From: an uncultured bacterium
GTDB taxonomy: Bacteria; Bdellovibrionota_B; Oligoflexia; CAYFLR01
Reading direction: 5' to 3'
Assembly (NCBI GenBank): GCA_964544765.1
Contig: CAZJDM010000001.1
Coordinates: 1,851-65,850, forward strand
Length of the DNA stretch: 64,000 nucleotides
The position numbers were made by a program, and so were the translations under genes. The notes beneath the pieces are model-generated. The model searched no databases. It saw only the letters and a program-made list of their open reading frames with translations, and was not told the origin of the DNA. Of this stretch, positions 3,002-58,126 are shown piece after piece (within the stretch, counting starts at the first letter, position 1; every line of letters begins with the position of its first letter).

Positions 3002-4222
3002 CTAAAAACTATATCCCAAAGACACTCCAATATTTGAATACTTCAAAGATGAAACATACTGACTACCCGAAGCCACTGCCATATATTTGGTCCATTCATA
3101 TTTTGCCAATAGGTGTATACTTCTAAATTCCGCTCCTAACGAGGCAAACCATGTCAACATATGAAAAGAATCATAATTTAGCTTAACATTTCTATCATCT
3201 ACCAATACTGAGTCAGGTAAAACTTTCCCGTTACTTTGTAAGGGCACTCCTCCTCCCAATCGAAACCATAACACTTTATACAATTTCATATGCTCCTCAA
3301 GCTTCAAAGTCAAAAATTGAAACCCTAGTGATCGAATATCCCCATCTCCATCCAAGATATTAAAAGAATGAAAATTAACTAAATCGAGCTTTAATAAAGA
3401 TTCTATGTATAAATTAGGACTAAAGGTAATGGGAATTCTAAAGTTTAATCCACTCTCAACCCAATCAGTAATGGCCGCCTCGGATATGCCTTCATTGGTT
3501 TCAGCACTTTCACTATGAGGTGTTAAGGTATAATTATTATAAATCCTATAATAGGAAATAGAAAAACCCAAAACTTCCCAAATAAACTTTCTAGTAAAAA
3601 AAGACAAGGGATATAAAACAGATGATATTCCATACCGAAATACTGAATTTGATTTAATATCCTGATCATATCTCTGAACTATATTACTGGAAGGATCTCC
3701 GCCTGTCATCTCTGGCATAACTATATTGATCCTATTAGCAACCAATCGAGACATAGAGCTATCCATAAAAAAAAGAGCTCTGGGAGCCTCAGATTTTATT
3801 TTAGGAATGTAGGCTCGTTCCACCATTGCTCCGAAAACAGCAACCGCAGATTTTAAAATACCAGGTCTTTTTCTGATATATTTTCTATTTGTTAGTTTTG
3901 AAATATTAGCAATGCTGTGTTGAGGAAAAACCTTCTTTACAATCAATATAGCCAATCTTACGCGACGTCCTGCGTCAAATCCCTTTCTATCATACAACAA
4001 AACTCTCTCCCCGACCATCATACCATCATCGCTTCCAAGAGATACGTAGTAACTTTTCCCTCTAACTTTAATTATTTTACCAACTGCCGCATATAGATTA
4101 CCGGTTTTATTTAGGACCAAAAATAAAAAGAAAGAATAAAACAAAATCTTCCATATTAAAGGTTTAATCATACTCAACACCCTTTTACTGATTAATCCAT
4201 ATTTAATTAACCCGATGTGCAA
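3002..4222 (-). CDS. putative outer-membrane beta-barrel protein with an N-terminal periplasmic domain (paralog of the 4271..6079 product)
   Basis: N-terminal hydrophobic segment. A soluble domain (GKIIKVRGKSYYVSLGSDDGMMVGERVLLY) similar to the middle domain of the upstream gene. The C-terminal region ends in the aromatic terminal signature ...SLGYSF, typical of OM barrels. Confidence 0.45.
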   Translation of the reverse strand: MHIGLIKYGLISKRVLSMIKPLIWKILFYSFFLFLVLNKTGNLYAAVGKIIKVRGKSYYVSLGSDDGMMVGERVLLYDRKGFDAGRRVRLAILIVKKVFPQHSIANISKLTNRKYIRKRPGILKSAVAVFGAMVERAYIPKIKSEAPRALFFMDSSMSRLVANRINIVMPEMTGGDPSSNIVQRYDQDIKSNSVFRYGISSVLYPLSFFTRKFIWEVLGFSISYYRIYNNYTLTPHSESAETNEGISEAAITDWVESGLNFRIPITFSPNLYIESLLKLDLVNFHSFNILDGDGDIRSLGFQFLTLKLEEHMKLYKVLWFRLGGGVPLQSNGKVLPDSVLVDDRNVKLNYDSFHMLTWFASLGAEFRSIHLLAKYEWTKYMAVASGSQYVSSLKYSNIGVSLGYSF

Positions 4223-4270
4223 GTTTCACTTACACCCCGCTGTTTAAGCGTTGAATTATAATTTATCTAC

Positions 4271-6079
4271 TCAAAATGAATAGGATATACCTAAATGAAT
4301 CAAAACCATTTGCTCATATATTGATACATTGGTCATATTTAACTGGGTATTACCTGGAAAAAGATAATCGTAAATAGTCCATTCCGCACCTACTTTTAGA
4401 TCCAACACACTCTTATATTTACTCAATACCCCTAAATAATACTTTGAATAACTTGACCCATCTGAACTAAAATCGCCATATAATTTATCTGTCGCGTTCC
4501 AGAGAACTTTTTTATTAATAGCTGCTATAATGCCTAAATCATCTAATCCGGCAAACAACCTCACGTAAAGAGGTATTTGAATTCCACAACCTATATCCAA
4601 TGACATAAGTTCTCTACTAGAAACTTGTTTCGCATTATTTATATGAACACTCTCAGACGACTTGGCCTTCGATTCTACACTTTCTAAAAAAACCCCCACC
4701 TTAGGAACTATTTCAAGACCCCTACCTCCCCCAAATAAATCTAAATTGAAGATAGATTCTCCCCATATACCCATACTTTGGTAGCCAACTGATACATCGG
4801 TAGATACAGAAGGATTTTTTTTCTCCAACTTCACTGAAGATTTACCATATGAATAATCCGCTCCAATCCGAACATTAGGTAAAATATCATAATAGCCATT
4901 TATCTTAAAGAAATCCAAAAAGGCATAAGGGGATGATATTACAGCTTTATATTTACTAGATTTAATCTGGAAAAAATACAAAAATGGACCCACACTGGCT
5001 CCAATATTTATTTTTCTACTACTTGTTGGATAGGAAACTTCTTTCTCTGCTGTTATTCTAGAGTCTACCCGACTTATCCCAATCGGATGCTCTCGACTAG
5101 GAGCGATCTTAGCATGACTTCCAGTTTCTTCTGAAGGAAATTTGTCTTTCTTTTTTTGGATATATTCTCTTTCTTTTGGTTTTGGTTGTGATTTTGGTAA
5201 AAAATCTCCCCTTCTTTCAACATTACTTAAGTCCTTAGGAGAGCTTAAATCTCTTTTTAATTTTTCTCGAGTAATCTTTTTATCAAAATATTTTTGAAAA
5301 TCCAATCCATGCAATAATACCTTATCACCCACTTGGATTTTTTTCCCCTCATCTAAAGAAATAACAACACCTAACGACACCTCATCTTTAAGATCAACTA
5401 ACTTTACCGTACCTAATTCGATTTTCTGTACATCCATTAATTCACCCATACTAGGGCTTCTGATAGCATCCTCAATCCGTACTAATTTTAAGAAATCTCC
5501 CTTTTTCAATCTTAAAGTAGAACCCGCATCAATAGTAATAAACTTTCCATTAACACTTGTAACAGAGGCCTGATATGGTAATAAATTCAAAATTCTATAA
5601 TACAAATCCTTAACCATAAGCTCTACATCATACTTTAATTTCCCCTTATCTTCCGACAAAGTGAGTAATTCATTTTCAAAAGCAACTGTTCGCCCATTAC
5701 GGGCATCAACCAAACGTAAAGCAACAACGATCCTTCCATCATTTAATAAAGCACTGTCCAAGATAAATAAGGCATCAATGTCATAATTTTGGATCAGATG
5801 CTTTAATGTCTCATTATCAAGAGATACCTTTTTACTTTTGATAGATTTAACGTAAGAAGACACTACCTCTTTAGACACCAAACGAAACCTCTGTGACAAT
5901 AATATTTGTGCATTTAAAGCATCAAACAACATCTTTTTAACTTTTAAGGGAACCTCTAACCTTGGATTATTAATCGAAGCCACTATTTTATAAGTTCCAA
6001 TCGCTTTTATTACTGATGATTGAGTCAAAAGGAAAATAACTAAAATTAAAGTGTAACAAATCTTAACTAGCTTTTTCAT
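4271..6079 (-). CDS. putative secreted multi-domain outer-membrane protein with a CsgG/FlgO/TolB-N-like domain
   Basis: Signal peptide MKKLVKICYTLILVIFLLTQSSVIKA. The N-domain pattern YKIVASINNP...LFDALNAQILLSQRFRLVSKE...IDALFILDSALLNDGRIVVALRLVDARNGRTV matches the CsgG/FlgO-type lipoprotein ring fold. It is followed by a small beta-rich domain, a K/P/E-rich linker, and a C-terminal barrel ending ...LGISYSF. Confidence 0.45.
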   Translation of the reverse strand: MKKLVKICYTLILVIFLLTQSSVIKAIGTYKIVASINNPRLEVPLKVKKMLFDALNAQILLSQRFRLVSKEVVSSYVKSIKSKKVSLDNETLKHLIQNYDIDALFILDSALLNDGRIVVALRLVDARNGRTVAFENELLTLSEDKGKLKYDVELMVKDLYYRILNLLPYQASVTSVNGKFITIDAGSTLRLKKGDFLKLVRIEDAIRSPSMGELMDVQKIELGTVKLVDLKDEVSLGVVISLDEGKKIQVGDKVLLHGLDFQKYFDKKITREKLKRDLSSPKDLSNVERRGDFLPKSQPKPKEREYIQKKKDKFPSEETGSHAKIAPSREHPIGISRVDSRITAEKEVSYPTSSRKINIGASVGPFLYFFQIKSSKYKAVISSPYAFLDFFKINGYYDILPNVRIGADYSYGKSSVKLEKKNPSVSTDVSVGYQSMGIWGESIFNLDLFGGGRGLEIVPKVGVFLESVESKAKSSESVHINNAKQVSSRELMSLDIGCGIQIPLYVRLFAGLDDLGIIAAINKKVLWNATDKLYGDFSSDGSSYSKYYLGVLSKYKSVLDLKVGAEWTIYDYLFPGNTQLNMTNVSIYEQMVLIHLGISYSF

Positions 6080-17253: not shown

Positions 17254-19668
17254 TTAGTATAAATTTTCCCGCCTAGCTCTAACTATAAATGGTATACTCA
17301 ACAATAGTATCATCATTAACAACGATCCTTTATCAGCAGAATTACTCTCCTGAATTGAGCAACTTCCACTATCTGGAGCTTTGCGATTAGCGCTGGTTGG
17401 TGGCTTTGCGGTTACTTTCTTACGGAAAGGTTTATTACTATCACGTAGGCTTTTTGCTTGACGACCTTGTTTTTTAATTCTACTTTGCATTGCTTCTACG
17501 GAACTTCCTGCCGGAACACCTAAAGGATTCCCCTTCTTGCCCCCCTTAGTTCCAGCGACCATATCTCTTGACCTATCTTGGACTAACTTAGGATTTCGTT
17601 TAGGAGCCTTACTTCCTGTTGAGATTCCTCCATTTGCTGAAGTCGAGCTTGAAGCTGAAGAAGTACCTGCACCTGCTTTAGTACCTGCACCTGCTTTAGT
17701 ACCTGCACCTGCTTTAGTACCTGCACCTGCCTTAGTACCTGTGCCTGCCTTAGTACCTGCTCCTGTTCCAGCACCAATTGATCCTGTATTATACTGACTA
17801 TCATAAGTCTTTATCTGTCTCTGAGCTTTTGAACCAATAGTATTAGCTTTACACTTTTGTACAGTCTCTGAATCCCATCCAGGTTGTTTAACACATGGAG
17901 TCAGGGCTACACACTGAAAGGAGAAATTACTACTTGCACTAGGTAAATTAATATCAGGGCAATATTTTTTCTGAATACGACTAACCCCACAAACCGAAGG
18001 AATATTTAACCTTTTCCAAAGGTTGCATTGATACCTAGCTATTTCCTGGGCTATCGCACTTTTTTCTGCCGCTTCTAATGAGGTAAGCACTACTTCTAAA
18101 GCATAATCCGCAAACACCAAAAGGTGTTGTTCGTTTTCCATCAAATTAAACCCCAATCCCATAATGGCACCATCGGTAGTACTGTCTAGTTTTGCAAAAA
18201 GAGAGCCTTTGGCTTGATTACTTCCAGGAATCTGCCTGGAATCATAACCCCCTGTATCTGGGGCAATTGGAATTAAGGCCTTAGCGTCTAAATTATCTTG
18301 ATGGTATATTATAACATTATCCACTAAAGCATTTTGACTATCATGTGAAACATATTTGGCAATATAACCTAATACATACGGTTGAGGTAAGTTGGTTATC
18401 ATTGGAATTAAGGCAACCGGTCCAAATGAAGGCCTGGTTGTTTGCTGTCTGCTATCTAGTAGTATTGCCATTGATTGAAAATTAGGCATCTCTCTTAAAG
18501 TCCAACCAGATGGATCATTTTCACTAAAGATCCCACTAAGTATTGATTTAATTCCCAGTTCCGTAAATCCAACACCTTCTTTAAATACTCCCCTAAGTTT
18601 TTTGCCTTCATAGTTTTCACCTTGTACCTTTGGAGCTAACTCATCTGACATGTTATCAAATATATCTTTAACTTCTTTGGACAATTTTCGATGAATGATA
18701 TATTTATCAGTTAAAAAATAGGATATTTGAGAAAAAGCGGTATAATAATCTTCCAAATCCAATTCTCCAGAAGCAGTTGAAGTACCAGAAGCAGTTGAAG
18801 TACCAGAAGCAGTTGAAGTACCAGAAGCAGTTGGAATACCAGAAGTAGCTGAAACATCAGAAGTAGCTGGAACATTGGTCGAAACCAAATTAGCTTCGGC
18901 TAATGTCCTAATTTGATTGGAATTCACTAAGGCACTAACAGTCGGCCCACTATCACTCTCAATGGCCTCACCCCAAGATGGATAGAGCTCAAAAGGATCA
19001 TTGCCATATAGGTCACCGGATGACGACTGATCTGTTGAATCGTCTGCTGGTTCTTCTGATTCATCTGAATCACTCTCATTACGACCTTCATCACCACCAA
19101 TAGTACTTTCAGAAACATTTGAATCTGAATCCACAGCAAGTGTATTACTATCGTTAACTGAGGCTTGATCGGTTGACTCAATAGCCCACTGATCTACGAA
19201 AGCTATTAAATCTCGATCTTCTATTTGTGCCATAAAAGCTTCTGGATGCTCTCCCACGGTTCCAGAAGTAATATGACCTTCTGCTTTCTCTTTGGCCCAT
19301 AAATAATGCCGGCATACCAAACCGAAATCACCGGTTATTTGATCCTCACCACAACTAACATCCCAAGTCCTCAAGTACCTTATGCAATTTTCACTGCTTA
19401 ATTTTGTTGTATCATTTTCATTAGTACCACAAAAAAGAGCCAAGCCATCAAGATATGCCTGTAATGCTTTTTTCTCCGCCTCAACAAGGGGTTCTCTTGA
19501 AACCACCCAGTTTAAGAAAAGCAAGCCTTTTCTAGCTGATGGTTTATCTGATAGACTTCTAGCACTCGAATCTAAGAATTTTACTTGTGATGTCCCAAGT
19601 CTACATCCCGACACTACCAAAAGACCAGATAATATAAATAATAAACTTATTAATTGTAATATACGCAT
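17254..19668 (-). CDS. large repeat-containing surface lipoprotein
   Basis: Signal peptide plus lipobox LLVVSGC. Acidic S/D/E-rich region. Tandem GTSTAS and KAGAGT hexapeptide repeats. The C-terminal tail CS..KGSLLMMILLLSIPFIVRARREN is a hydrophobic helix followed by basic residues. Confidence 0.55.
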   Translation of the reverse strand: MRILQLISLLFILSGLLVVSGCRLGTSQVKFLDSSARSLSDKPSARKGLLFLNWVVSREPLVEAEKKALQAYLDGLALFCGTNENDTTKLSSENCIRYLRTWDVSCGEDQITGDFGLVCRHYLWAKEKAEGHITSGTVGEHPEAFMAQIEDRDLIAFVDQWAIESTDQASVNDSNTLAVDSDSNVSESTIGGDEGRNESDSDESEEPADDSTDQSSSGDLYGNDPFELYPSWGEAIESDSGPTVSALVNSNQIRTLAEANLVSTNVPATSDVSATSGIPTASGTSTASGTSTASGTSTASGELDLEDYYTAFSQISYFLTDKYIIHRKLSKEVKDIFDNMSDELAPKVQGENYEGKKLRGVFKEGVGFTELGIKSILSGIFSENDPSGWTLREMPNFQSMAILLDSRQQTTRPSFGPVALIPMITNLPQPYVLGYIAKYVSHDSQNALVDNVIIYHQDNLDAKALIPIAPDTGGYDSRQIPGSNQAKGSLFAKLDSTTDGAIMGLGFNLMENEQHLLVFADYALEVVLTSLEAAEKSAIAQEIARYQCNLWKRLNIPSVCGVSRIQKKYCPDINLPSASSNFSFQCVALTPCVKQPGWDSETVQKCKANTIGSKAQRQIKTYDSQYNTGSIGAGTGAGTKAGTGTKAGAGTKAGAGTKAGAGTKAGAGTSSASSSTSANGGISTGSKAPKRNPKLVQDRSRDMVAGTKGGKKGNPLGVPAGSSVEAMQSRIKKQGRQAKSLRDSNKPFRKKVTAKPPTSANRKAPDSGSCSIQESNSADKGSLLMMILLLSIPFIVRARRENLY
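17663..17770. repeat. 18-bp tandem repeat (unit gtacctgcacctgcttta), about 5.5 copies, in-frame within the lipoprotein gene
   Basis: Three perfect copies are followed by progressively degenerate copies. Encodes (KAGAGT)n on the minus strand. Confidence 0.8.
18767..18874. repeat. 18-bp tandem repeat (unit ccagaagcagttgaagta), 3 perfect plus about 3 degenerate copies, in-frame within the same gene
   Basis: Encodes (GTSTAS)n on the minus strand. Confidence 0.8.
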
Positions 19669-37387: not shown

Positions 37388-37666
37388 ATGAAAATTGAAA
37401 AACCAGAAAATGATGTCGATAGTATCGACTTTACTACCTTTATTTTCTCTTTAGGCTCCGCAGCCCTTATTGCTTTAGGAGAATCACCAGATCCTACAAC
37501 AAAAAAGTCCCATTTTTCTCCTTTATCCGCCAAGCAAAACATTGATATTATAGCTCTAATTCAAGAGAAAACTAAAGGAAATTTAACCAATGAAGAATCT
37601 GATTTAATATCCCGAATGCTATCGGACCTTCAAGTGAAGTATGTTTCAAAATTATCAAAATTATAA
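37388..37666 (+). CDS. DUF1844-like small protein
   Basis: FTTFIFSLGSAALIALGESPDP...ALIQEKTKGNLTNEESDLISRMLSDLQVKYV follows the DUF1844 pattern from memory. Confidence 0.4.
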   Translation: MKIEKPENDVDSIDFTTFIFSLGSAALIALGESPDPTTKKSHFSPLSAKQNIDIIALIQEKTKGNLTNEESDLISRMLSDLQVKYVSKLSKL

Positions 37667-38630
37667 AAAAATCAAAACTCTTAAAGAGATTATTATGTCA
37701 GGAATCGGTATCATTACAAACCCTTATTCAAAGAAAAACATAAAAACCCCCGGTCATAAAATTATGATGGGGTATATTTTGGGCAATAGAGGGCATTACA
37801 AAATTACAGAGAGTCTGGAAGATTTATCCAAGGTAGCAGAAGAATTTAAATCCCAAGAGATAGATATACTTGGCATAAATGGAGGAGATGGGACCATTCA
37901 AAAAACAATTACGACTTTTATTTCTGTATATGGAAAAGACAAACTACCTAAAATAGCCCTACTTAGGGGTGGAACCATGAACGTCATTGCTAATAATTTA
38001 AATATTAAAGGTAGTTCAAAAACCTTATTATTAGATTTAGTGGAAAAATACCATGCTGCAGATCCTTTTGATTATGCCAAACTACAAACTATTAAGTGTA
38101 ATGATCAATACGGATTTATTTTTACAAGTGGATTTGCCTCAAATTTTTTAGAGGAATATTATAAAAACAAATCGGGCCCCTTAGGAGCAATTTTTTTCGC
38201 CATTAAACTAGCTTTGGGTATTTTTAGAAAAAATTCTCTTATTCATCAAATTACCAAACCCGCTACCCTTACTATTCAAGGAAAAACCCTTCCTGAAACA
38301 AGTAATACATCAAATACTATCCTTATTAGTACCCTCAATTACCTCCCCTTAAGACTCAAATTATTTAATCGAATCAAAAAAGGAATGAAACGGTTTCAAG
38401 CCTTTTTTATAAATCGCCGCCCCTTTGAGTTAGTTAAACTGGTCCTGAATGTATTTTTTAGATTACCTTTAAATAAAAAGAACATCATTGAACTATTGAG
38501 TGATGAAATTATCCTATCCTCTGACCAAGGAATATTAGTTGGGTTAGATGGAGATTTATTTGGAGAGCAAAAAAATGTTAGAATATCTTTAGGACCAGAA
38601 TTAACTTTTATTCTAAATGGCAAATATTAA
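37641..38630 (+). CDS. DAGK_cat-family lipid kinase (YegS/BmrU-like)
   Basis: GINGGDGT glycine-rich catalytic motif. The likely real start is the internal MSGIGIITNPY (~37695). Confidence 0.55.
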   Translation: MFQNYQNYKKIKTLKEIIMSGIGIITNPYSKKNIKTPGHKIMMGYILGNRGHYKITESLEDLSKVAEEFKSQEIDILGINGGDGTIQKTITTFISVYGKDKLPKIALLRGGTMNVIANNLNIKGSSKTLLLDLVEKYHAADPFDYAKLQTIKCNDQYGFIFTSGFASNFLEEYYKNKSGPLGAIFFAIKLALGIFRKNSLIHQITKPATLTIQGKTLPETSNTSNTILISTLNYLPLRLKLFNRIKKGMKRFQAFFINRRPFELVKLVLNVFFRLPLNKKNIIELLSDEIILSSDQGILVGLDGDLFGEQKNVRISLGPELTFILNGKY

Positions 38631-39667
38631 TGATGATGAATACTCAAAGAACAAGCAAGAACAACTTTTTGACCACCCATTATCCCAAAATAGTTCCTTT
38701 ACCTGGAGATGCTTCTAAACGATGTTATTATAGAATATATGATAAAGAAGGAAAATCTGCGATCCTTACTGAGACCCACCTAGACTCACCGGATACCTTT
38801 AATCATTTTTTAGAGGTTCAAAATTTATTAAAAAAGCGATTTGTACCCGTTCCCGATGTTTTATTTAGCGATCCTAAGGAATTATATTTGCTCCAAACAG
38901 ATCTGGGTGACACTAGAATGTACGATCAACTTCAGTATCTTTCTTCTGAGCAAATAGAATCTCTATATAAAAAAGCCATTGATCTATTAGTCCTTTTTCA
39001 GAAAAAAACTAGTGTTAAGGCCTCCATAACCGCATATAAACAATCTTTTGATTATCACAAGTTATCCTGGGAAGTTGGATTTACCAATCAGCATTTTCTT
39101 ACTTCACTTTTATCATTAAAGAAGGAATCTCATTCCACCAAAATCATGAATTTCCTTACAGAATCATTTCATCAAATCTGCTTACAAATTTCCCAACTCC
39201 CATATATTTTAACCCATAGGGATTATCATTCTAAAAACCTCATGCTACACAAGAATAAGCTTTTTCTAATAGATTTTCAGGATGCCCGGATGGGACCCAC
39301 ATCTTATGATTTGGTTTCTTTACTAAGAGACGCATATTTTCCCCTAGATGAAAAATTACATACAACCTTAATTCGTTATTATTATCAACAAGCAATTAGC
39401 CTGCAAAATTTCATATATATTTTTCCTTCTGAATCTCATTTCATTCAACAATACCATCTTGTTTCTCTACAGCGATTATATAAAGTCATTGGATCCTTTG
39501 CTTTTATATATAAAAACAAGAATGACAAAGCATATCTCGATTATTTAAACACCGCTTTAAATAAACTAAAGGCCGCTGTTTCCTTTTTTCCTCAATATGA
39601 CAACCTATACTCCACACTGATCGAACTAAAGGATCAATTTAGTGCTTTGATGTCCAAGGTTAAATAA
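38630..39667 (+). CDS. APH/ChoK-fold phosphotransferase (AmgK-like anomeric sugar kinase or choline-kinase-like)
   Basis: HRDYHSKNLML catalytic loop and IDFQDA metal-binding motif. 345 aa. Confidence 0.55.
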   Translation: MMMNTQRTSKNNFLTTHYPKIVPLPGDASKRCYYRIYDKEGKSAILTETHLDSPDTFNHFLEVQNLLKKRFVPVPDVLFSDPKELYLLQTDLGDTRMYDQLQYLSSEQIESLYKKAIDLLVLFQKKTSVKASITAYKQSFDYHKLSWEVGFTNQHFLTSLLSLKKESHSTKIMNFLTESFHQICLQISQLPYILTHRDYHSKNLMLHKNKLFLIDFQDARMGPTSYDLVSLLRDAYFPLDEKLHTTLIRYYYQQAISLQNFIYIFPSESHFIQQYHLVSLQRLYKVIGSFAFIYKNKNDKAYLDYLNTALNKLKAAVSFFPQYDNLYSTLIELKDQFSALMSKVK

Positions 39668-40732
39668 ATGAAAGCAATGATTTTAGCCGCTGGATATGGC
39701 ACCAGACTTACTCCTATCACTGATAATTTGCCTAAACCCTTGGTACCGGTTTTAAATATTCCTATTATCGACTATACTTTATTTCAACTTTACAAGGCTA
39801 ATGTTCAAAAGATTGTCATTAATTTACATCACCACGCGGTTCAAATTCGTGATTATATTTCCACCACATGGAACAAGAAACTCAATCTAACTTTTTTGAT
39901 GGAAGAAACTATATTAGGAACCGGGGGAGGGATAAAAAATGCCCAACCATTGTTGAAAGAGGAACCTTTTTTACTTATAAATGCTGATATCCTATTTAAT
40001 CTGGATTTAACTGCATTATACCAACATCATCTCGACACTGGCTTAATAGCTACTATGGTTTTAAGACCTATGGATGCTTCTCAAATTAACAATCTTTCTA
40101 GTATTGAGTTATCCAAGCAAAACAAAATTCTTAAAATCAATCCTCCTCAAGCTGAACCTTCAAACTCACTACCACTTCACTTTGCCTGTATTCATGTTAT
40201 ATCTCCCGCTTTTTTTGATTTATTACCAACACCAGGTTTTAGTTCGATCGTAAATGATGGCTACCTTCCCTTATTAAAGGACAAGCAATCTGTAGAAGGA
40301 TTTCTATATGACGGTTTTTGGTCAGACATTGGACAGTTTCCAGATCTGTACCAAACCAATATGAAGTTACTTACAAAGCCCAATATCGTACCTTTTTACA
40401 AAGAACTCTCTGTTTTAATTAATGAAAATTCTACTTATGAACAACAAGCGCTTGAAAAAACAAGATTAATAATGAACAATATTCTGATAGGCAACAACTG
40501 TTCGATCCATCCCACCGTGCAATTAGAAGATAATTGTATTATTGGTAATTCAGTCCAGATTGATGAGAATACTCACCTATCTAATGTTTTAATTCTACCA
40601 GGTTCTCATATCCCTGCGGATAAAAAGATAATGAATGCTATTGTATATCCTAATAAAACCTTCGGTTGCACGATAAGCGCTGTAAAGTATTTGCAGGCAA
40701 TTCCTCCTTGTAAAGATAATAATAACCTTTAA
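39668..40732 (+). CDS. sugar-1-phosphate nucleotidyltransferase with a C-terminal left-handed beta-helix (MurU/LicC/GlmU-N-like)
   Basis: MKAMILAAGYGTRLTPITDNLPKPLVPV is the NTP-transferase signature. The C-terminal hexapeptide repeats are NNILIGNNCSIHPTVQLEDNCIIGNSVQID. Confidence 0.6.
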   Translation: MKAMILAAGYGTRLTPITDNLPKPLVPVLNIPIIDYTLFQLYKANVQKIVINLHHHAVQIRDYISTTWNKKLNLTFLMEETILGTGGGIKNAQPLLKEEPFLLINADILFNLDLTALYQHHLDTGLIATMVLRPMDASQINNLSSIELSKQNKILKINPPQAEPSNSLPLHFACIHVISPAFFDLLPTPGFSSIVNDGYLPLLKDKQSVEGFLYDGFWSDIGQFPDLYQTNMKLLTKPNIVPFYKELSVLINENSTYEQQALEKTRLIMNNILIGNNCSIHPTVQLEDNCIIGNSVQIDENTHLSNVLILPGSHIPADKKIMNAIVYPNKTFGCTISAVKYLQAIPPCKDNNNL

Positions 40733-40878: not shown

Positions 40879-41967
40879 TTAAGGAAGCAAAGCGATATCC
40901 TTATTAGTTGGATCTTCATTATCAAGCATGTCCGGTATTTTTTGTTGATACAATTTTTCAACTTCTTTCCAAGAAGACAAAATCATATTATAAAATTCTT
41001 TATCGCTTAAAGTTTCCGGTCTACCTGAAAGATTGTCTTTAAGAACAGAGTCTTGGTCATTTTTATCCATATTAAGGGTTAAAACCTTACCTGAAGGATT
41101 TTCATTAATCTCATTTTGCTGATTTAAGGACTCTAATAACACCTCTTCTAAAATGTCTGCTGAAGAGGGTTTATAAGCTGCTATCTTAATAGGTTTGCTT
41201 TTCACCTTGATATCTATTTTAGTTGTATGAGAAGGTCTGGACTTAAGATCATCAACTCCGGCTATTTTTTGAGTGAAATATGTTACTCTCTGACCAGCAT
41301 AAATCACGTGTGGATTTACAATACGTGAGTGACGCCATAAAATGGGCCAACTTCTAGCATCTCCATACACTTTATGTGCAATTCCCGAAAGGGTATCGCC
41401 TCGAACAACTTTATAATACGATGGGGTTTTAGATACATATTGTGATGTAAAATCTTCATTAATAGGAGTCAATTTATAATATACGACATCTCCAACCCGA
41501 CAATTACGAATCGGTTTACCATTGGCGCCAAATATCAACTCATTTTGATTAACTGAACCATAGACTTTTTTTCTAATACTCTTCACCGATTCAAAAAGTC
41601 CAACCACATAGGGCATCATGGTTCCATGTTCCGGCAGAAATTTATTAACCTGTCCTGGCTCAGTGTTTATTCTTTGATCATCCTCAGCCATTAACTGTTC
41701 TTCAATCATTTGCTCGATAGAATTATTCAGAGAGTTATCATCTACAACACTATCTGCTTGATTATTTTGAGATTTGTCATCTTCATCAACAGGATTTTCA
41801 TCGGACGCAACAGATTTAGCTGATATATCTGTTTCAATATTCGATTGATTTTCTTCAATGGTTATTTCAACCTTTTCTTCATTATATCCTGCACATGCTA
41901 AAAATAATGTATGAACCGCAAAGATCATAATCACTATGTTTATAATTTGGGATATGATGTTTTTCAT
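40879..41967 (-). CDS. secreted LysM-domain protein
   Basis: N-terminal signal/TM, acidic low-complexity region, LysM motif (YKVVRGDTLSGIAHKVYGDARSWPILWRHS). Confidence 0.5.
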   Translation of the reverse strand: MKNIISQIINIVIMIFAVHTLFLACAGYNEEKVEITIEENQSNIETDISAKSVASDENPVDEDDKSQNNQADSVVDDNSLNNSIEQMIEEQLMAEDDQRINTEPGQVNKFLPEHGTMMPYVVGLFESVKSIRKKVYGSVNQNELIFGANGKPIRNCRVGDVVYYKLTPINEDFTSQYVSKTPSYYKVVRGDTLSGIAHKVYGDARSWPILWRHSRIVNPHVIYAGQRVTYFTQKIAGVDDLKSRPSHTTKIDIKVKSKPIKIAAYKPSSADILEEVLLESLNQQNEINENPSGKVLTLNMDKNDQDSVLKDNLSGRPETLSDKEFYNMILSSWKEVEKLYQQKIPDMLDNEDPTNKDIALLP

Positions 41968-42182: not shown

Positions 42183-43169
42183 ATGAGTTCTACACAAAAA
42201 ATTGGCGTGTTAATTTTAGCGGCAGGGTTAGGTACGCGAATGCGTAGCAAAAAGCCCAAAATGCTTCATACCTTATTCTCCCAACCCTTATTGTATTATC
42301 CTATTGATTTAGCCCTTAATTTAAATCCCGCACAAATAATACCTATTATAAGTGATTCTATAATAAAGTCAGATGTATTAACCAAATATAGTAATTATAA
42401 AAACCTTATTTCCCCCTGTATTCAAGAGGAACCCTTAGGCACCGGACACGCCGTCCAATGTGGCTTGCAGCATATATCCCCTGATATAAAGACAGTATTT
42501 ATTTTATGTGGTGATATTCCCGCCTTCTCTAGTCAAACAGCCAAAGATTTCTTAAAAAATCATGTTGATTCGAACGCCACATTAAGTGTACTTACCGCAT
42601 CGCTTCCCAATCCCTTTGGGTTTGGCCGTATCATAAAAAATGATAAAGGAGACTTCATCAAAATAGTTGAGCAAAAAGACGCTAATCCTCAAGAAAAAAC
42701 AACTAATGAGGTTAATTCTGGCATATATTGTATTGATATTAATTTTCTGCGAAAATCTATTAACCAATTATCTAATAACAACTCGCAAACAGAGTTCTAT
42801 CTCACTGATATTATAGAGATTGCTTTTAAACAGGGGCTTTCTCCAACTACCTTTAAAATAGAAGACCACATGGAAATTTTTGGAGTTAACACCTTAGAAC
42901 AACTAGCTACTATTCAACGACACATGCAAAACAAGATTTTATCTAATTTTATGGATAATGGAGTACGAATAATAGATCCCTTTACGACTTACATTTCTCC
43001 TGAAGTCAGTATCAGCCCTGATGTAACTATCCATCCTTGTACTCATATACATGGAAAAACAATTATATCAGAAGGTGCCATAATTGGACCCAATGTCAGT
43101 TTAGAAAACATCAAAATTGCTAAAAATGAGGTTATTTCTACTCAAAAAGCAATTAATATATCAAGCTAA
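42183..43169 (+). CDS. glmU: GlmU-like N-acetylglucosamine-1-phosphate uridylyltransferase lacking the C-terminal acetyltransferase half
   Basis: ILAAGLGTRMRSKKPKMLHTL matches the GlmU N-terminus. Only 328 aa. The stop is followed 20 nt later by glmS with its own RBS, so there is no room for the LbH acetyltransferase domain. Confidence 0.6.
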   Translation: MSSTQKIGVLILAAGLGTRMRSKKPKMLHTLFSQPLLYYPIDLALNLNPAQIIPIISDSIIKSDVLTKYSNYKNLISPCIQEEPLGTGHAVQCGLQHISPDIKTVFILCGDIPAFSSQTAKDFLKNHVDSNATLSVLTASLPNPFGFGRIIKNDKGDFIKIVEQKDANPQEKTTNEVNSGIYCIDINFLRKSINQLSNNNSQTEFYLTDIIEIAFKQGLSPTTFKIEDHMEIFGVNTLEQLATIQRHMQNKILSNFMDNGVRIIDPFTTYISPEVSISPDVTIHPCTHIHGKTIISEGAIIGPNVSLENIKIAKNEVISTQKAINISS

Positions 43170-43189
43170 GGAAGTAAGGAAATTAAATT

Positions 43190-45019
43190 ATGTGTGGAAT
43201 TATCGGATATATTGGAAAAAACGATGCCAGAAATGTTATTTTAGAAGGTCTTAAAACTCTTGAATACAGGGGCTATGATTCATCAGGAATTGCTGTTTTA
43301 AAGAATAAGGAGATCCGGGTTGTAAAGTCAAAGGGTAAAATAGTACAACTTGAAAAGAAACTTAAAGAAGAACCTATTGTTAGTAATATAGGCATTGGGC
43401 ATACCAGATGGGCCACACATGGCAAGCCAAATGGATTAAACGCTCATCCTCATCATATAGACAACATTGTCCTTATTCACAATGGTATTATTGAAAATTA
43501 CCATTCTATCAAACAAAAAATGATAGACAATGGTCGAAAATTTATCTCAGAAACCGATACCGAGGTTGCTGCCCATTTAGTTGCGTATAATTACCAAAAA
43601 AGTAAAAATATAAAAGAGGCCATTTTACAAAGCGTCAACCAATTAGAGGGATCCTTTTCTTTAGGAATTATCTGCCAAGATTACCCAAATAAAATCTTTG
43701 GAGTAAAAAATGGCTCTCCCTTAATTGTTGGCCATCATCCTGAACACACATTATTTGCCTCAGACATTCCGGCTTTAGTTCGCTACACCGATGAAATTTA
43801 TCACATGGAAGATCTTGAAATTACAGAGATTTCACGTGAAACCATCTCTTTTTATGATTTTGAAGGACAAACCATCAACAAATCTCCTCACAAAATGCAA
43901 TGGACCCCTGTGAACATAGAGAAGGGTGGTTATAAACATTATATGCTCAAAGAGATCTTTGAACAACCCACAGCCTTGGCCAATAATATTTCTACTCGTA
44001 TTTTTAAAGACACCGGAACTCTTAATATTAAGGAAACTGGAATTAATGAAATTGATTTAAAGCAAATTAAGAAGATCCATATCATAGCTTGTGGTACCAG
44101 CTGGCACGCTGGTTTGATAGGCAAATTTTTAATTGAAAAAATTACACGCATACCGGTCGAAGTTGATCTAGCTTCTGAGTATCGTTATAGATCGCCGCTT
44201 ATTGATAAAGAAACTATCCTAATTCCCATTTCACAATCTGGTGAAACAGCTGACACTTTGGCATCTTTAAAGCTAGCCTGCTCTAAAGACATGCCCAGCA
44301 TAGCTATTGTTAATGCTTTTGAAAGCTCTATTTCTCGCTTAGCTAATGCTGCTTTTTACACTTTAGCTGGTCCCGAAATTGGTGTCGCCTCAACTAAAGC
44401 TTTTACTACCCAGATTCTTACCCTTTATCAACTGGCCCTGGCAATTGCTCAAGAAATGAAAATCCTTTCTTCCGAGGAACTAAATGCAAAACTCCAGGAT
44501 ATAGTAACTCTTCCCTCTTTAGTGGAAAAAACCTTATCTTTATCTGGAGATATTGAAAAACTAAGTTCAATTTATCAATCCATAAACAGTTTTATGTTTA
44601 TAGGGAGAGGTATTAATTATCCGATTGCCTTAGAGGGAGCTCTTAAGCTTAAAGAAATTTCGTACATTCATGCCGAAGGATATCCTGCAGGGGAATTAAA
44701 ACATGGTCCCATTGCTTTAATTGATGAAGTAATGCCCACTGTTGCCATTTGTTTAAAAGATCATGTATACACCAAAACATTCTCAAATATTGAAGAAATT
44801 CATGCTCGCGGAGGTAAACTTATAATAATAGCTACTGAAGGAGATGAATCCTTTAACCAAATCACCGATCATGTTTTTTACCTTCCTAAGGTATCATGGG
44901 AACTTTCTCCAATATTAGCTTCTATACCTCTCCAGCTCTTGGCTTATTACATCGCAAACTTGAAAGGAACAGATATTGACCAACCAAGAAACCTCGCAAA
45001 AAGCGTCACCGTTGAATAG
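43190..45019 (+). CDS. glmS: glutamine--fructose-6-phosphate aminotransferase
   Basis: MCGIIGYIG Ntn amidotransferase start and two SIS domains. 609 aa. Confidence 0.9.
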   Translation: MCGIIGYIGKNDARNVILEGLKTLEYRGYDSSGIAVLKNKEIRVVKSKGKIVQLEKKLKEEPIVSNIGIGHTRWATHGKPNGLNAHPHHIDNIVLIHNGIIENYHSIKQKMIDNGRKFISETDTEVAAHLVAYNYQKSKNIKEAILQSVNQLEGSFSLGIICQDYPNKIFGVKNGSPLIVGHHPEHTLFASDIPALVRYTDEIYHMEDLEITEISRETISFYDFEGQTINKSPHKMQWTPVNIEKGGYKHYMLKEIFEQPTALANNISTRIFKDTGTLNIKETGINEIDLKQIKKIHIIACGTSWHAGLIGKFLIEKITRIPVEVDLASEYRYRSPLIDKETILIPISQSGETADTLASLKLACSKDMPSIAIVNAFESSISRLANAAFYTLAGPEIGVASTKAFTTQILTLYQLALAIAQEMKILSSEELNAKLQDIVTLPSLVEKTLSLSGDIEKLSSIYQSINSFMFIGRGINYPIALEGALKLKEISYIHAEGYPAGELKHGPIALIDEVMPTVAICLKDHVYTKTFSNIEEIHARGGKLIIIATEGDESFNQITDHVFYLPKVSWELSPILASIPLQLLAYYIANLKGTDIDQPRNLAKSVTVE

Positions 45020-56717: not shown

Positions 56718-57719
56718 TCAAAAATTCGATTTAATGTGATACACTCCTAAGATTACCTTTAAGAATTGCTCCTGCCACTTTTTCAAATCATCAAGCACCG
56801 AGCTTACTGTATATTGATCAGTTACGTGCCGTTTTTGCTGCCTAGCCTCTTCTAGCAACTTTTCAGCGAAGCAAACAAAATCACCATGGTATGGGAAATC
56901 AACTGATGCGATTTTATATTTAAGAGAGTTGTAGCTATATCTAAATGTAAAAGTAATATTATCTGTTTTTAGGTCATAAAAAAGACACCGATTGTGGAAG
57001 CAATTTCTTTTATCACGAGGAGTGTAATATTTCATTGGCAGGGTATCCACAATCATTCTTGCTTGCTCTGCATTAATACTTGTTCTAAATGGAAAAATTC
57101 TTACAATCTCTTCCTGAGTGATTTTATTGGGGTCTGGCGGTAATGGCACTTGATGATATATCACCTTTAAAAACCTAGTATCAGACGTTATTCTTATTTT
57201 AAGCATATCTTCTAAGAGATAATCTTCTTTTAATTCTTGCATGTACTGTGGGTTTTCTCTTAAAAAATGAAGTAATAAGTTAAGTTGTAACAATGTAAAA
57301 GAAAAGCTAATACCTAAAGTGTCTCTATCAAAACCCATCTCTACAATGATTCCTTGAGTATTTAACTCACTAATTACTTTATCAGTATCTAACAGGTGTT
57401 CTAAATATTTAGCTTTATCGGTAAGAGTACCATATTCAAGGTCCAATCCTATGCTATTGGCGACAGAGAAAATATCTTCTCTAGACTCACCACTCGACAT
57501 AAACTCTTTATGTTTGACATCCTTTGGTTTACAAATCTGATTCACTCTGCACTTATAAGCTTTAAAAAACCCAAAAGAAATCCCTGTGACATTTCCATAA
57601 AGATCTAAAACGAAAGAGCCACTATCACCATGTTGTTGACTAAAACCATATTGAGAATGGTCATGCTTGGGTACAAATAAGTCAAATTGTTGAATATCTT
57701 TATCAGGAGATTTAAACAT
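56718..57719 (-). CDS. orphan protein beginning with a trypsin-like serine-protease C-terminal remnant (GDSGS...GISFG) followed by ~270 aa of unknown function
   Basis: HGDSGSFVLDLYGNVTGISFG parallels the chymotrypsin/HtrA Ser195 region (GDSGGP...G.V.GI.S.G). There is no upstream His/Asp region. The reading frame continues open upstream into the IS200-like remnant. Confidence 0.4.
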   Translation of the reverse strand: MFKSPDKDIQQFDLFVPKHDHSQYGFSQQHGDSGSFVLDLYGNVTGISFGFFKAYKCRVNQICKPKDVKHKEFMSSGESREDIFSVANSIGLDLEYGTLTDKAKYLEHLLDTDKVISELNTQGIIVEMGFDRDTLGISFSFTLLQLNLLLHFLRENPQYMQELKEDYLLEDMLKIRITSDTRFLKVIYHQVPLPPDPNKITQEEIVRIFPFRTSINAEQARMIVDTLPMKYYTPRDKRNCFHNRCLFYDLKTDNITFTFRYSYNSLKYKIASVDFPYHGDFVCFAEKLLEEARQQKRHVTDQYTVSSVLDDLKKWQEQFLKVILGVYHIKSNF

Positions 57720-57769: not shown

Positions 57770-58126
57770 ATGATAAAACAACTTCTCGTTTATACAGGAG
57801 AACATGTGAAAAAGATGATTAATCAATTGACAAAAAGAAATGACGCAAAATTTACTATAGAAAAGATGGAAGTCGACAAGGATCATATCCATCTTATGGT
57901 AAATGCGAATCCTAACGTATCCGCAACTCAAATTATTAGAAGAATTAAACAAAACACTACTTTTTTAATTTGGAATGAGTTTAATGATTATTTGAAAAAA
58001 CACTATTGGAAAGAGAAGACTTTTTGGTCAGATGGTTACTTTGTTTCATCTATAGGAAATGCTTCAGAAGACACTATTCGGAGGTATATTGATAACCAAG
58101 GATATAAAACACCAAGACTAAGCTGA
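57770..58126 (+). mobile_element. tnpA: IS200/IS605-family (HUH, Y1) transposase TnpA-like ORF, apparently N-terminally truncated or degenerate
   Basis: HUH motif HIHLMV and catalytic-Tyr region FWSDGYFVSSIG align with IS200 TnpA. The N-terminal beta-strand (YHxVFxxKYRR) is missing. Confidence 0.5.

Follow-up and report, generated by a model that had tools for sequence, protein, structure and literature searches.

A GlmU reduced to its uridylyltransferase half and coupled to glmS in a rare bacterial lineage

How does a bacterium that makes peptidoglycan obtain UDP-GlcNAc if its GlmU ends before the acetyltransferase half, and is such a gene a lesion or an evolved state? As an antibiotic target, GlmU is considered bifunctional and universally essential, and genome annotations take for granted that it supplies both steps. 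In the 64,000-nt stretch of DNA analyzed here (hereafter the window), the glmU gene on the forward strand (42183–43169, stop codon included) runs from an ATG to a TAA at 43167–43169 and encodes 328 amino acids ending in AINISS, a predicted monofunctional GlcNAc-1-P uridylyltransferase. A first-pass annotation had read this gene as a GlmU consisting of the uridylyltransferase domain and the start of the beta-helix, had placed it at 42183–43189, and had offered either a eukaryote- or archaeon-like split of the two activities or a recent truncation. The start of that interval holds, but the ORF ends at 43169 and the remaining 20 nt are the spacer in front of glmS.

The pyrophosphorylase (uridylyltransferase) domain occupies residues 1–232 (42183–42878, with PF00483 at residues 10–220), followed by a long arm of alpha helix (residues 238–258; 42894–42956; helix by DSSP in the predicted model), a stub of the left-handed beta-helix of about 3.5 coils (residues ~259–318; 42957–43136; short beta strands at 262–318 and PF00132 at 275–307), and a short variable tail with the stop codon (residues 319–328; 43137–43169; pLDDT 58 in the last block), all on the forward strand. 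The N-terminal signature named in the first-pass annotation, LAAGLGTRMRSKKPKMLHTL, of the L-x2-G-x-G-T-x-M-x4-P-K type, is present in the pyrophosphorylase domain. In Pfam the protein matches NTP_transferase (PF00483, E = 6.9e-17), NTP_transf_3, Hexapep and IspD and no other families; the UDPGP-family fold of the eukaryote-type pyrophosphorylases (UAP1/AGX1/NagU) was matched neither in Pfam nor in the structure search. Eleven NCBIfam GlmU equivalog models match it with E values from 1e-56 to 1e-92 (190–310 bits), but the alignments cover only model positions ~2–313 of 447–488 and the score lies under the curated cutoff in all eleven (299.3 versus 366.85 for TIGR01173). The comparison with GlmU family HMMs that the first-pass annotation had proposed therefore leaves the acetyltransferase LbH region uncovered, as it had expected. 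Measured against the bifunctional GlmU of TIGR01173, the protein carries the pyrophosphorylase signature and residues, but neither a complete beta-helix acetyltransferase site nor an equivalog score; its fold and its conserved state are those of a GlmU-derived monofunctional form.

Residues were mapped by aligning the short GlmU to E. coli GlmU, using a reference identical to PDB 1HV9. The C-terminus aligns with E. coli residue 319. Each uridylyltransferase residue checked is kept (E. coli numbering: L11-A-A-G14, G16, T17, R18, K25, Q76, G81 and T82, as well as D105, G140, E154, N169 and N227), and the catalytic and substrate residues of this activity are also kept in the GlmU of the clade relatives. 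Because the protein stops opposite residue 319, the acetyltransferase positions R333, K351, H363, Y366, N377, N386, K392, S405, A423 and R440 have no counterpart. To judge from these residues, the short GlmU is a uridylyltransferase-only enzyme without the acetyltransferase half. A profile HMM of the GlmU C-terminal part, built from 105 full-length homologs and giving 1e-55 to 1e-66 on positive controls, had no match at E ≤ 10 when the window was translated in six frames, and GlmS is complete from its MCGI start, so that no continuation is possible in the space downstream. The residue mapping and the empty C-terminal search together show that the first-pass description of the protein was correct and that there is no hidden continuation.

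The AlphaFold2 model of the short GlmU (81-sequence alignment; pLDDT 94.4, pTM 0.90) has a Rossmann-like domain, the helix at 238–258, strands of the left-handed-beta-helix type at 262–318 and a low-confidence tail. The helical arm corresponds to Leu230–Ala250 of E. coli GlmU (PMC10087520). A Foldseek search of the PDB with this model returned GlmU structures only, with a query-normalised TM score of 0.90 to M. tuberculosis GlmU and 0.85 in both directions to 1FXJ/1FWY, which are E. coli GlmU-Tr331, a laboratory truncation that likewise comprises the pyrophosphorylase domain, the arm and the initial coils of the beta-helix, the acetyltransferase site having been removed. Since the model is co-extensive with GlmU-Tr331, the protein may be regarded as the counterpart of this uridylyltransferase-only construct, although it is natural, ~12 residues shorter and only about 28–30% identical. 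GlmU-Tr331 gives uridylyltransferase activity only, in vivo (Renzi et al. 2015); truncated GlmU domains are each active alone, uridyl transfer proceeds without trimerisation, and interdomain contacts help folding (PMC10087520). The stub of ~3.5 coils in the short GlmU probably serves folding, stability or trimerisation.

The glmU stop codon is followed by a 20-nt spacer (43170–43189, forward strand) with a Shine-Dalgarno-like AAGGAA at 43176–43181, and then by glmS, encoding glutamine--fructose-6-phosphate aminotransferase (43190–45019, forward strand; ATG at 43190; 609 aa). The stop had been placed 20 nt before both a ribosome-binding site and the glmS ATG; the distance to the ATG is right, but the ribosome-binding site lies inside the spacer. 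GlmS is intact and matches its models end to end (NF001484, 809.7 bits; TIGR01135, 800.9 bits, residues 1–609 on 1–601 of 601). No terminator-like site was found on the forward strand in the spacer; the promoter scan gave 17 sites versus 12.9 ± 3.8 in shuffled sequence, which is not above expectation; and Rfam gave no RNA family, neither a glmS ribozyme nor any other, whether the whole window was searched at gathering thresholds or the surroundings of the locus at E ≤ 1. The short glmU is tightly coupled to an intact glmS, just as had been claimed, and since the junction is kept, the two genes are probably still co-expressed. In E. coli, too, glmU lies in an operon with glmS. The best named matches of GlmS are from Deltaproteobacteria and Nitrospirota MAGs at about 52% identity, and no glmU is found near one Deltaproteobacteria GlmS whose context was inspected (P0128). 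At its 3′ end, glmS is overlapped over 44 nt (44976–45019) by the longest pcrA/uvrD ORF, which has a TTG start at 44976; an alternative gene-caller start gives an 8-nt overlap, and the same overlap occurs in the relatives.

A bacterial GlmU is expected from model lengths to have about 450 amino acids, and this prior expectation is all that speaks for an assembly or sequencing artefact (a missed indel) or for a bifunctional glmU that was truncated recently and is becoming a pseudogene. The comparison covered eight independent assemblies (JGI, ENA and Logan): seven are identical in the short glmU, its stop and the spacer, and the eighth differs by 1 nt; the spacer is identical in all eight, and an identical GlmS occurs on at least 15 contigs (JGI, ENA, Logan and NCBI). 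There is no DNA for the missing ~130 residues, as the spacer has 20 nt and no C-terminal remnant exists in any frame. Moreover, the same architecture is found in relatives. In the closest (P0002), glmU encodes 323 aa with about 80% protein identity and glmS begins 21 nt downstream; in two distant relatives, glmU encodes 328 and 324 aa and ends 26 and 8 nt before glmS, with GlmS 60% and 57% and GlmU 43% and 44–45% identical to those of the window. All four known clade members therefore have a glmU of 323–328 aa located 8–26 nt upstream of glmS. The gene order shared with the relatives is rpoH, OMP, dnaJ, DUF1844, DAGK-like kinase, AmgK-like kinase, MurU-like transferase, LysM protein, short glmU, glmS, pcrA, mnmG, parA, parB, bactofilin, def, fmt and rpe. 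When 5.8 billion sequences were searched with a profile built from the four proteins, those four clusters alone were recovered, and the score then fell from 563 to 347 bits; this is a rare lineage, and every known member is short. Among full-length proteins, P0013 (460 aa) matches the clade profile best, and here too glmS comes directly after glmU; a scan of the genome collection for close relatives gave only full-length GlmUs of Actinomarina and Acidimicrobiaceae at 35–36% identity.

Selection has maintained the short protein. The dN/dS ratio against the ~80% identical relative is 0.10 overall and 0.06 in the beta-helix stub (stub pN 0.105, pS 0.70), both ratios being approximate because dS is near saturation (1.07 overall and about 2 for the stub). 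Conservation of the stub matches that of the catalytic domain, at 48–49% versus 43–44% identity to the distant relatives. The tail sequence differs among clade members, with the end point kept within about 3 residues. These comparisons indicate that the short form is an evolved, conserved and long-lasting state and not a lesion. With the same architecture in relatives whose GlmU is 43–81% identical, and a dN/dS of 0.10, the artefact or recent truncation is refuted as far as sequence data allow and retains a practically negligible probability; the first-pass suggestion to that effect can be set aside.

Short GlmUs also occur in other lineages: 14 of the best 120 matches have 320–340 aa. One group is a 321-aa GlmU of the Acidaminococcaceae type, present as complete genes at the canonical Firmicutes locus ispE-gntR-...-glmU-prs-...-pth (L008, 6001–6966; L009, 4027–4992) and named at NCBI only "NTP transferase domain-containing protein". 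It resembles the window protein in its end point (E. coli residue 321), in the same retained stub and in occupying its own lineage's orthologous glmU position, but it sits on a separate tree branch, has another neighborhood and has no adjacent glmS; on these sequences, a diderm Firmicutes family appears to have lost the acetyltransferase half independently. A third short group consists of P0104 (320 aa, a complete gene at L023 3560–4522, Logan SRR26541473) and P0082 (340 aa); the neighborhood of P0104 is unrelated, with genes for an HD-domain protein and purH. The short GlmUs end opposite E. coli residues 316–321, with the exception of P0082 at 335. In a GlmU tree the short forms fall into three distinct groups, one of which lies within a set of full-length proteins, and it seems that the cut arose at least three times at one boundary, just before the coils of the acetyltransferase site, the independence of the three groups resting on a neighbor-joining tree without support values. 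The contexts of the other short-GlmU lineages share no candidate partner gene.

Uridylyltransferase-only GlmUs have already been published, in Capnocytophaga (2015) and in the preprint of Fong et al. (2026). The window protein is homologous to bifunctional GlmU (TIGR01173, PRK143xx) over model positions ~2–313, shares its uridylyltransferase residues and its glmU-glmS operon position, but is without the C-terminal ~135 residues and below every equivalog cutoff. The GlmU_Cc of Capnocytophaga canimorsus (Ccan_15070) and its Bacteroidetes orthologs are likewise monofunctional GlcNAc-1-P uridylyltransferases in a bacterium without a GlmU acetyltransferase, and such orthologs occur in 30 of 45 Bacteroidetes genera (Renzi et al. 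2015). By its published description, however, GlmU_Cc has the transferase domain only and stands very far from bifunctional GlmU, with 27% similarity to the nearest of these, whereas the window protein is a typical GlmU with about 40% identity to bifunctional ones, keeps the beta-helix stub and has glmS adjacent. The N-terminal-only GlmU variants of Fong et al. (2026), for example in Polystyrenella longa, likewise have the uridylyltransferase part only and imply an unidentified acetyltransferase; these came from genomes chosen for carrying NagU. What the present locus adds is a deep and rare lineage that has kept its glmS junction, together with evidence of a recurrent cut at one boundary. It provides a clear and conserved example of an acetyltransferase half long absent while glmS and the cell-wall genes are kept, and it shows which part of the beta-helix stays when only the uridylyltransferase is needed, although it does not establish a new pathway. 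Together with the two other apparently independent lineages, it offers a comparative set for finding the acetyltransferase sought by recent work.

The genes murE, murF, mraY and ftsI lie just beyond the window, which indicates that peptidoglycan is made and UDP-GlcNAc required; they belong to an mraZ-rsmH-ftsL-ftsI-murE-murF-mraY cluster just past the right edge (L024, 1–7260), which follows rsmD-like, coaD and aminotransferase genes. The C-terminal HMM had no match at E ≤ 10 in the extra flanks or in the relatives' syntenic contigs either. Pfam and NCBIfam searches of the window ORFs of at least 120 aa and several shorter ones yielded neither a GNAT nor a hexapeptide acetyltransferase, and there was no acetyltransferase in ~16 kb of extra flank, so that about 80 kb of the genome was covered in all; the remainder may carry a second, full-length glmU paralog or a stand-alone acetyltransferase half. 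The flanks past both window edges hold dcw/mur and housekeeping genes and no glmM. As UDP-GlcNAc is required and no acetyltransferase is present in the window or flanks, the acetyl step probably comes from an enzyme elsewhere or from salvage.

Upstream of glmU on the forward strand, an AmgK-like anomeric sugar kinase of the APH fold (38630–39667) matches NF045759 over its full length with 123.6 bits (cutoff 550) and PDB 3csv with 1.8e-21, and a MurU/GMPP-like sugar-1-P nucleotidyltransferase (39668–40732, 354 aa) matches the MurU model NF045761 with 133.1 bits (cutoff 250) and UGPase, GMPPB and MurU in the PDB. The pair thus reaches neither equivalog cutoff; as both align over their full length and the genes are adjacent, they may be called AmgK/MurU-like by sequence, with putative specificity. 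Together with a DAGK_cat/YegS-like lipid kinase, these genes abut or overlap in a forward-strand run (37641–40732) that is found clade-wide. Between the salvage-like genes and glmU, a LysM-domain protein (PF01476, 1.2e-5) is encoded on the reverse strand (40879–41967), and it occurs at the same place in the relatives with widely variable length (318–437 aa). The MurU-like protein was considered as the missing acetyltransferase and rejected: its beta-helix tail is short and variable, the protein having 354 aa here and 307 and 321 aa in relatives, it has no match to the GlmU acetyltransferase HMM, and because the tail is absent or shortened in relatives it is not the missing enzyme.

Taken together, the gene is very probably a genuine, long-established and selectively maintained monofunctional GlmU derivative, with acetylation supplied from outside this protein. 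The simplest history would be a 3′ deletion within an ancestral glmU-glmS operon that retained the junction and took exactly the coils forming the acetyl-CoA and GlcN-1-P site. The predicted activity is conversion of GlcNAc-1-P and UTP to UDP-GlcNAc for peptidoglycan and envelope. N-acetylation would then come from elsewhere, either from a stand-alone beta-helix enzyme acting on GlcN-1-P or from a GNA1-like GNAT that works on GlcN-6-P, with a mutase as the next step, and because glmS is intact, conserved and coupled in all four members, an acetyltransferase elsewhere in the genome is favored as the most likely source; an additional supply may come from GlcNAc salvage by way of the AmgK-like anomeric kinase encoded 2.5 kb upstream.

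The two routes of acetylation within this preferred reading are each possible though doubtful, and we do not rank them against each other. A separate beta-helix gene that acetylates GlcN-1-P in trans would agree with bacteria in which the two GlmU halves are encoded apart, such as Wujia chipingensis (Fong et al. 2026), and with the intact, coupled glmS, which implies that de novo GlcN-6-P is in use; against it stands the lack of any C-terminal HMM match in the window, extra flanks and relatives' syntenic contigs. The other route, in which a GNA1-like GNAT or another non-GlmU enzyme acetylates GlcN-6-P, a mutase makes GlcNAc-1-P and the short GlmU acts last, is the order of the eukaryotic pathway, the only one that uses separate enzymes (PMC10087520). 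It fits the retained glmS and the "unidentified acetyltransferase" inferred by Fong et al. for species with the N-terminal GlmU part only, but neither a GNAT among the window ORFs nor a mutase was seen. The "archaeon-like" half of the first-pass comparison is not accurate: by the descriptions of TIGR03992 and NF041173, the GlmU-type enzymes of archaea also carry both functions.

Full dependence on outside GlcNAc (from the surroundings, prey or the cell's own wall turnover), phosphorylated at C1 by the AmgK-like kinase and uridylylated by the short GlmU, is a less likely but serious alternative. Its model is C. canimorsus, which has a uridylyltransferase-only GlmU, is without acetyltransferase and GlmM activities and needs external GlcNAc, yet has a source of GlcN-6-P (Renzi et al. 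2015). AmgK, a kinase acting at the anomeric position of MurNAc and GlcNAc, turns GlcNAc into GlcNAc-1-P (PMC5371407), and by analogy the AmgK-like kinase could feed the short GlmU by salvage. The AmgK-like/MurU-like pair and the LysM protein do lie directly upstream and are syntenic clade-wide, but because the whole region is syntenic, the adjacency is weak evidence, and the kinase scores 123.6 bits where its equivalog cutoff is 550. Furthermore, glmS is strongly conserved and translationally coupled in all four clade members, which is difficult to account for if GlcN-6-P has no route to UDP-GlcNAc. Far less probable still is a reversed order, in which the short enzyme makes UDP-GlcN from GlcN-1-P and another enzyme acetylates the nucleotide sugar: E. 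coli GlmU can transfer uridyl before acetyl, though with greatly reduced parameters (PMC10087520), but the GlcNAc-1-P site retains all its residues, T82, E154 and N169 among them, and no candidate UDP-GlcN acetyltransferase was seen.

More broadly, we tentatively propose, at about one chance in three, that de novo UDP-GlcNAc synthesis in this free-living, flagellated, peptidoglycan-making lineage, and by convergence in at least two more, Acidaminococcaceae among them, combines a uridylyltransferase-only GlmU with an acetyltransferase that is not derived from GlmU, either GNA1-like on GlcN-6-P or a new enzyme. If so, this would be a non-canonical bacterial hexosamine pathway, and the recurrent cut at one boundary would mark genomes where phylogenetic profiling could find the missing enzyme.

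The rest of the window, with a G+C content of about 34%, carries holB, tmk, lon, grpE, mutS, flgE, flgD, fliK, fliJ, fliI, fliH, fliG, fliF and fliE, as well as rpoH, dnaJ, pcrA, mnmG, parAB, bactofilin, def, fmt, rpe, thiI and speA; the RpoH match is of the proteobacterial type, and parAB adjoins bactofilin, features that, with the GlmS matches, do no more than suggest a deltaproteobacteria-like lineage. Large ORFs of 406, 602, 804 and 333 aa on the reverse strand (3002–6079, 17254–19668 and 56718–57719) have no significant Pfam match, the 602-aa ORF giving a weak FlgT_C match only (E = 0.003). Between the unannotated 333-aa ORF and thiI, a 118-aa ORF on the forward strand (57770–58126) matches the IS200-like Y1 transposase family (PF01797, 5e-28).
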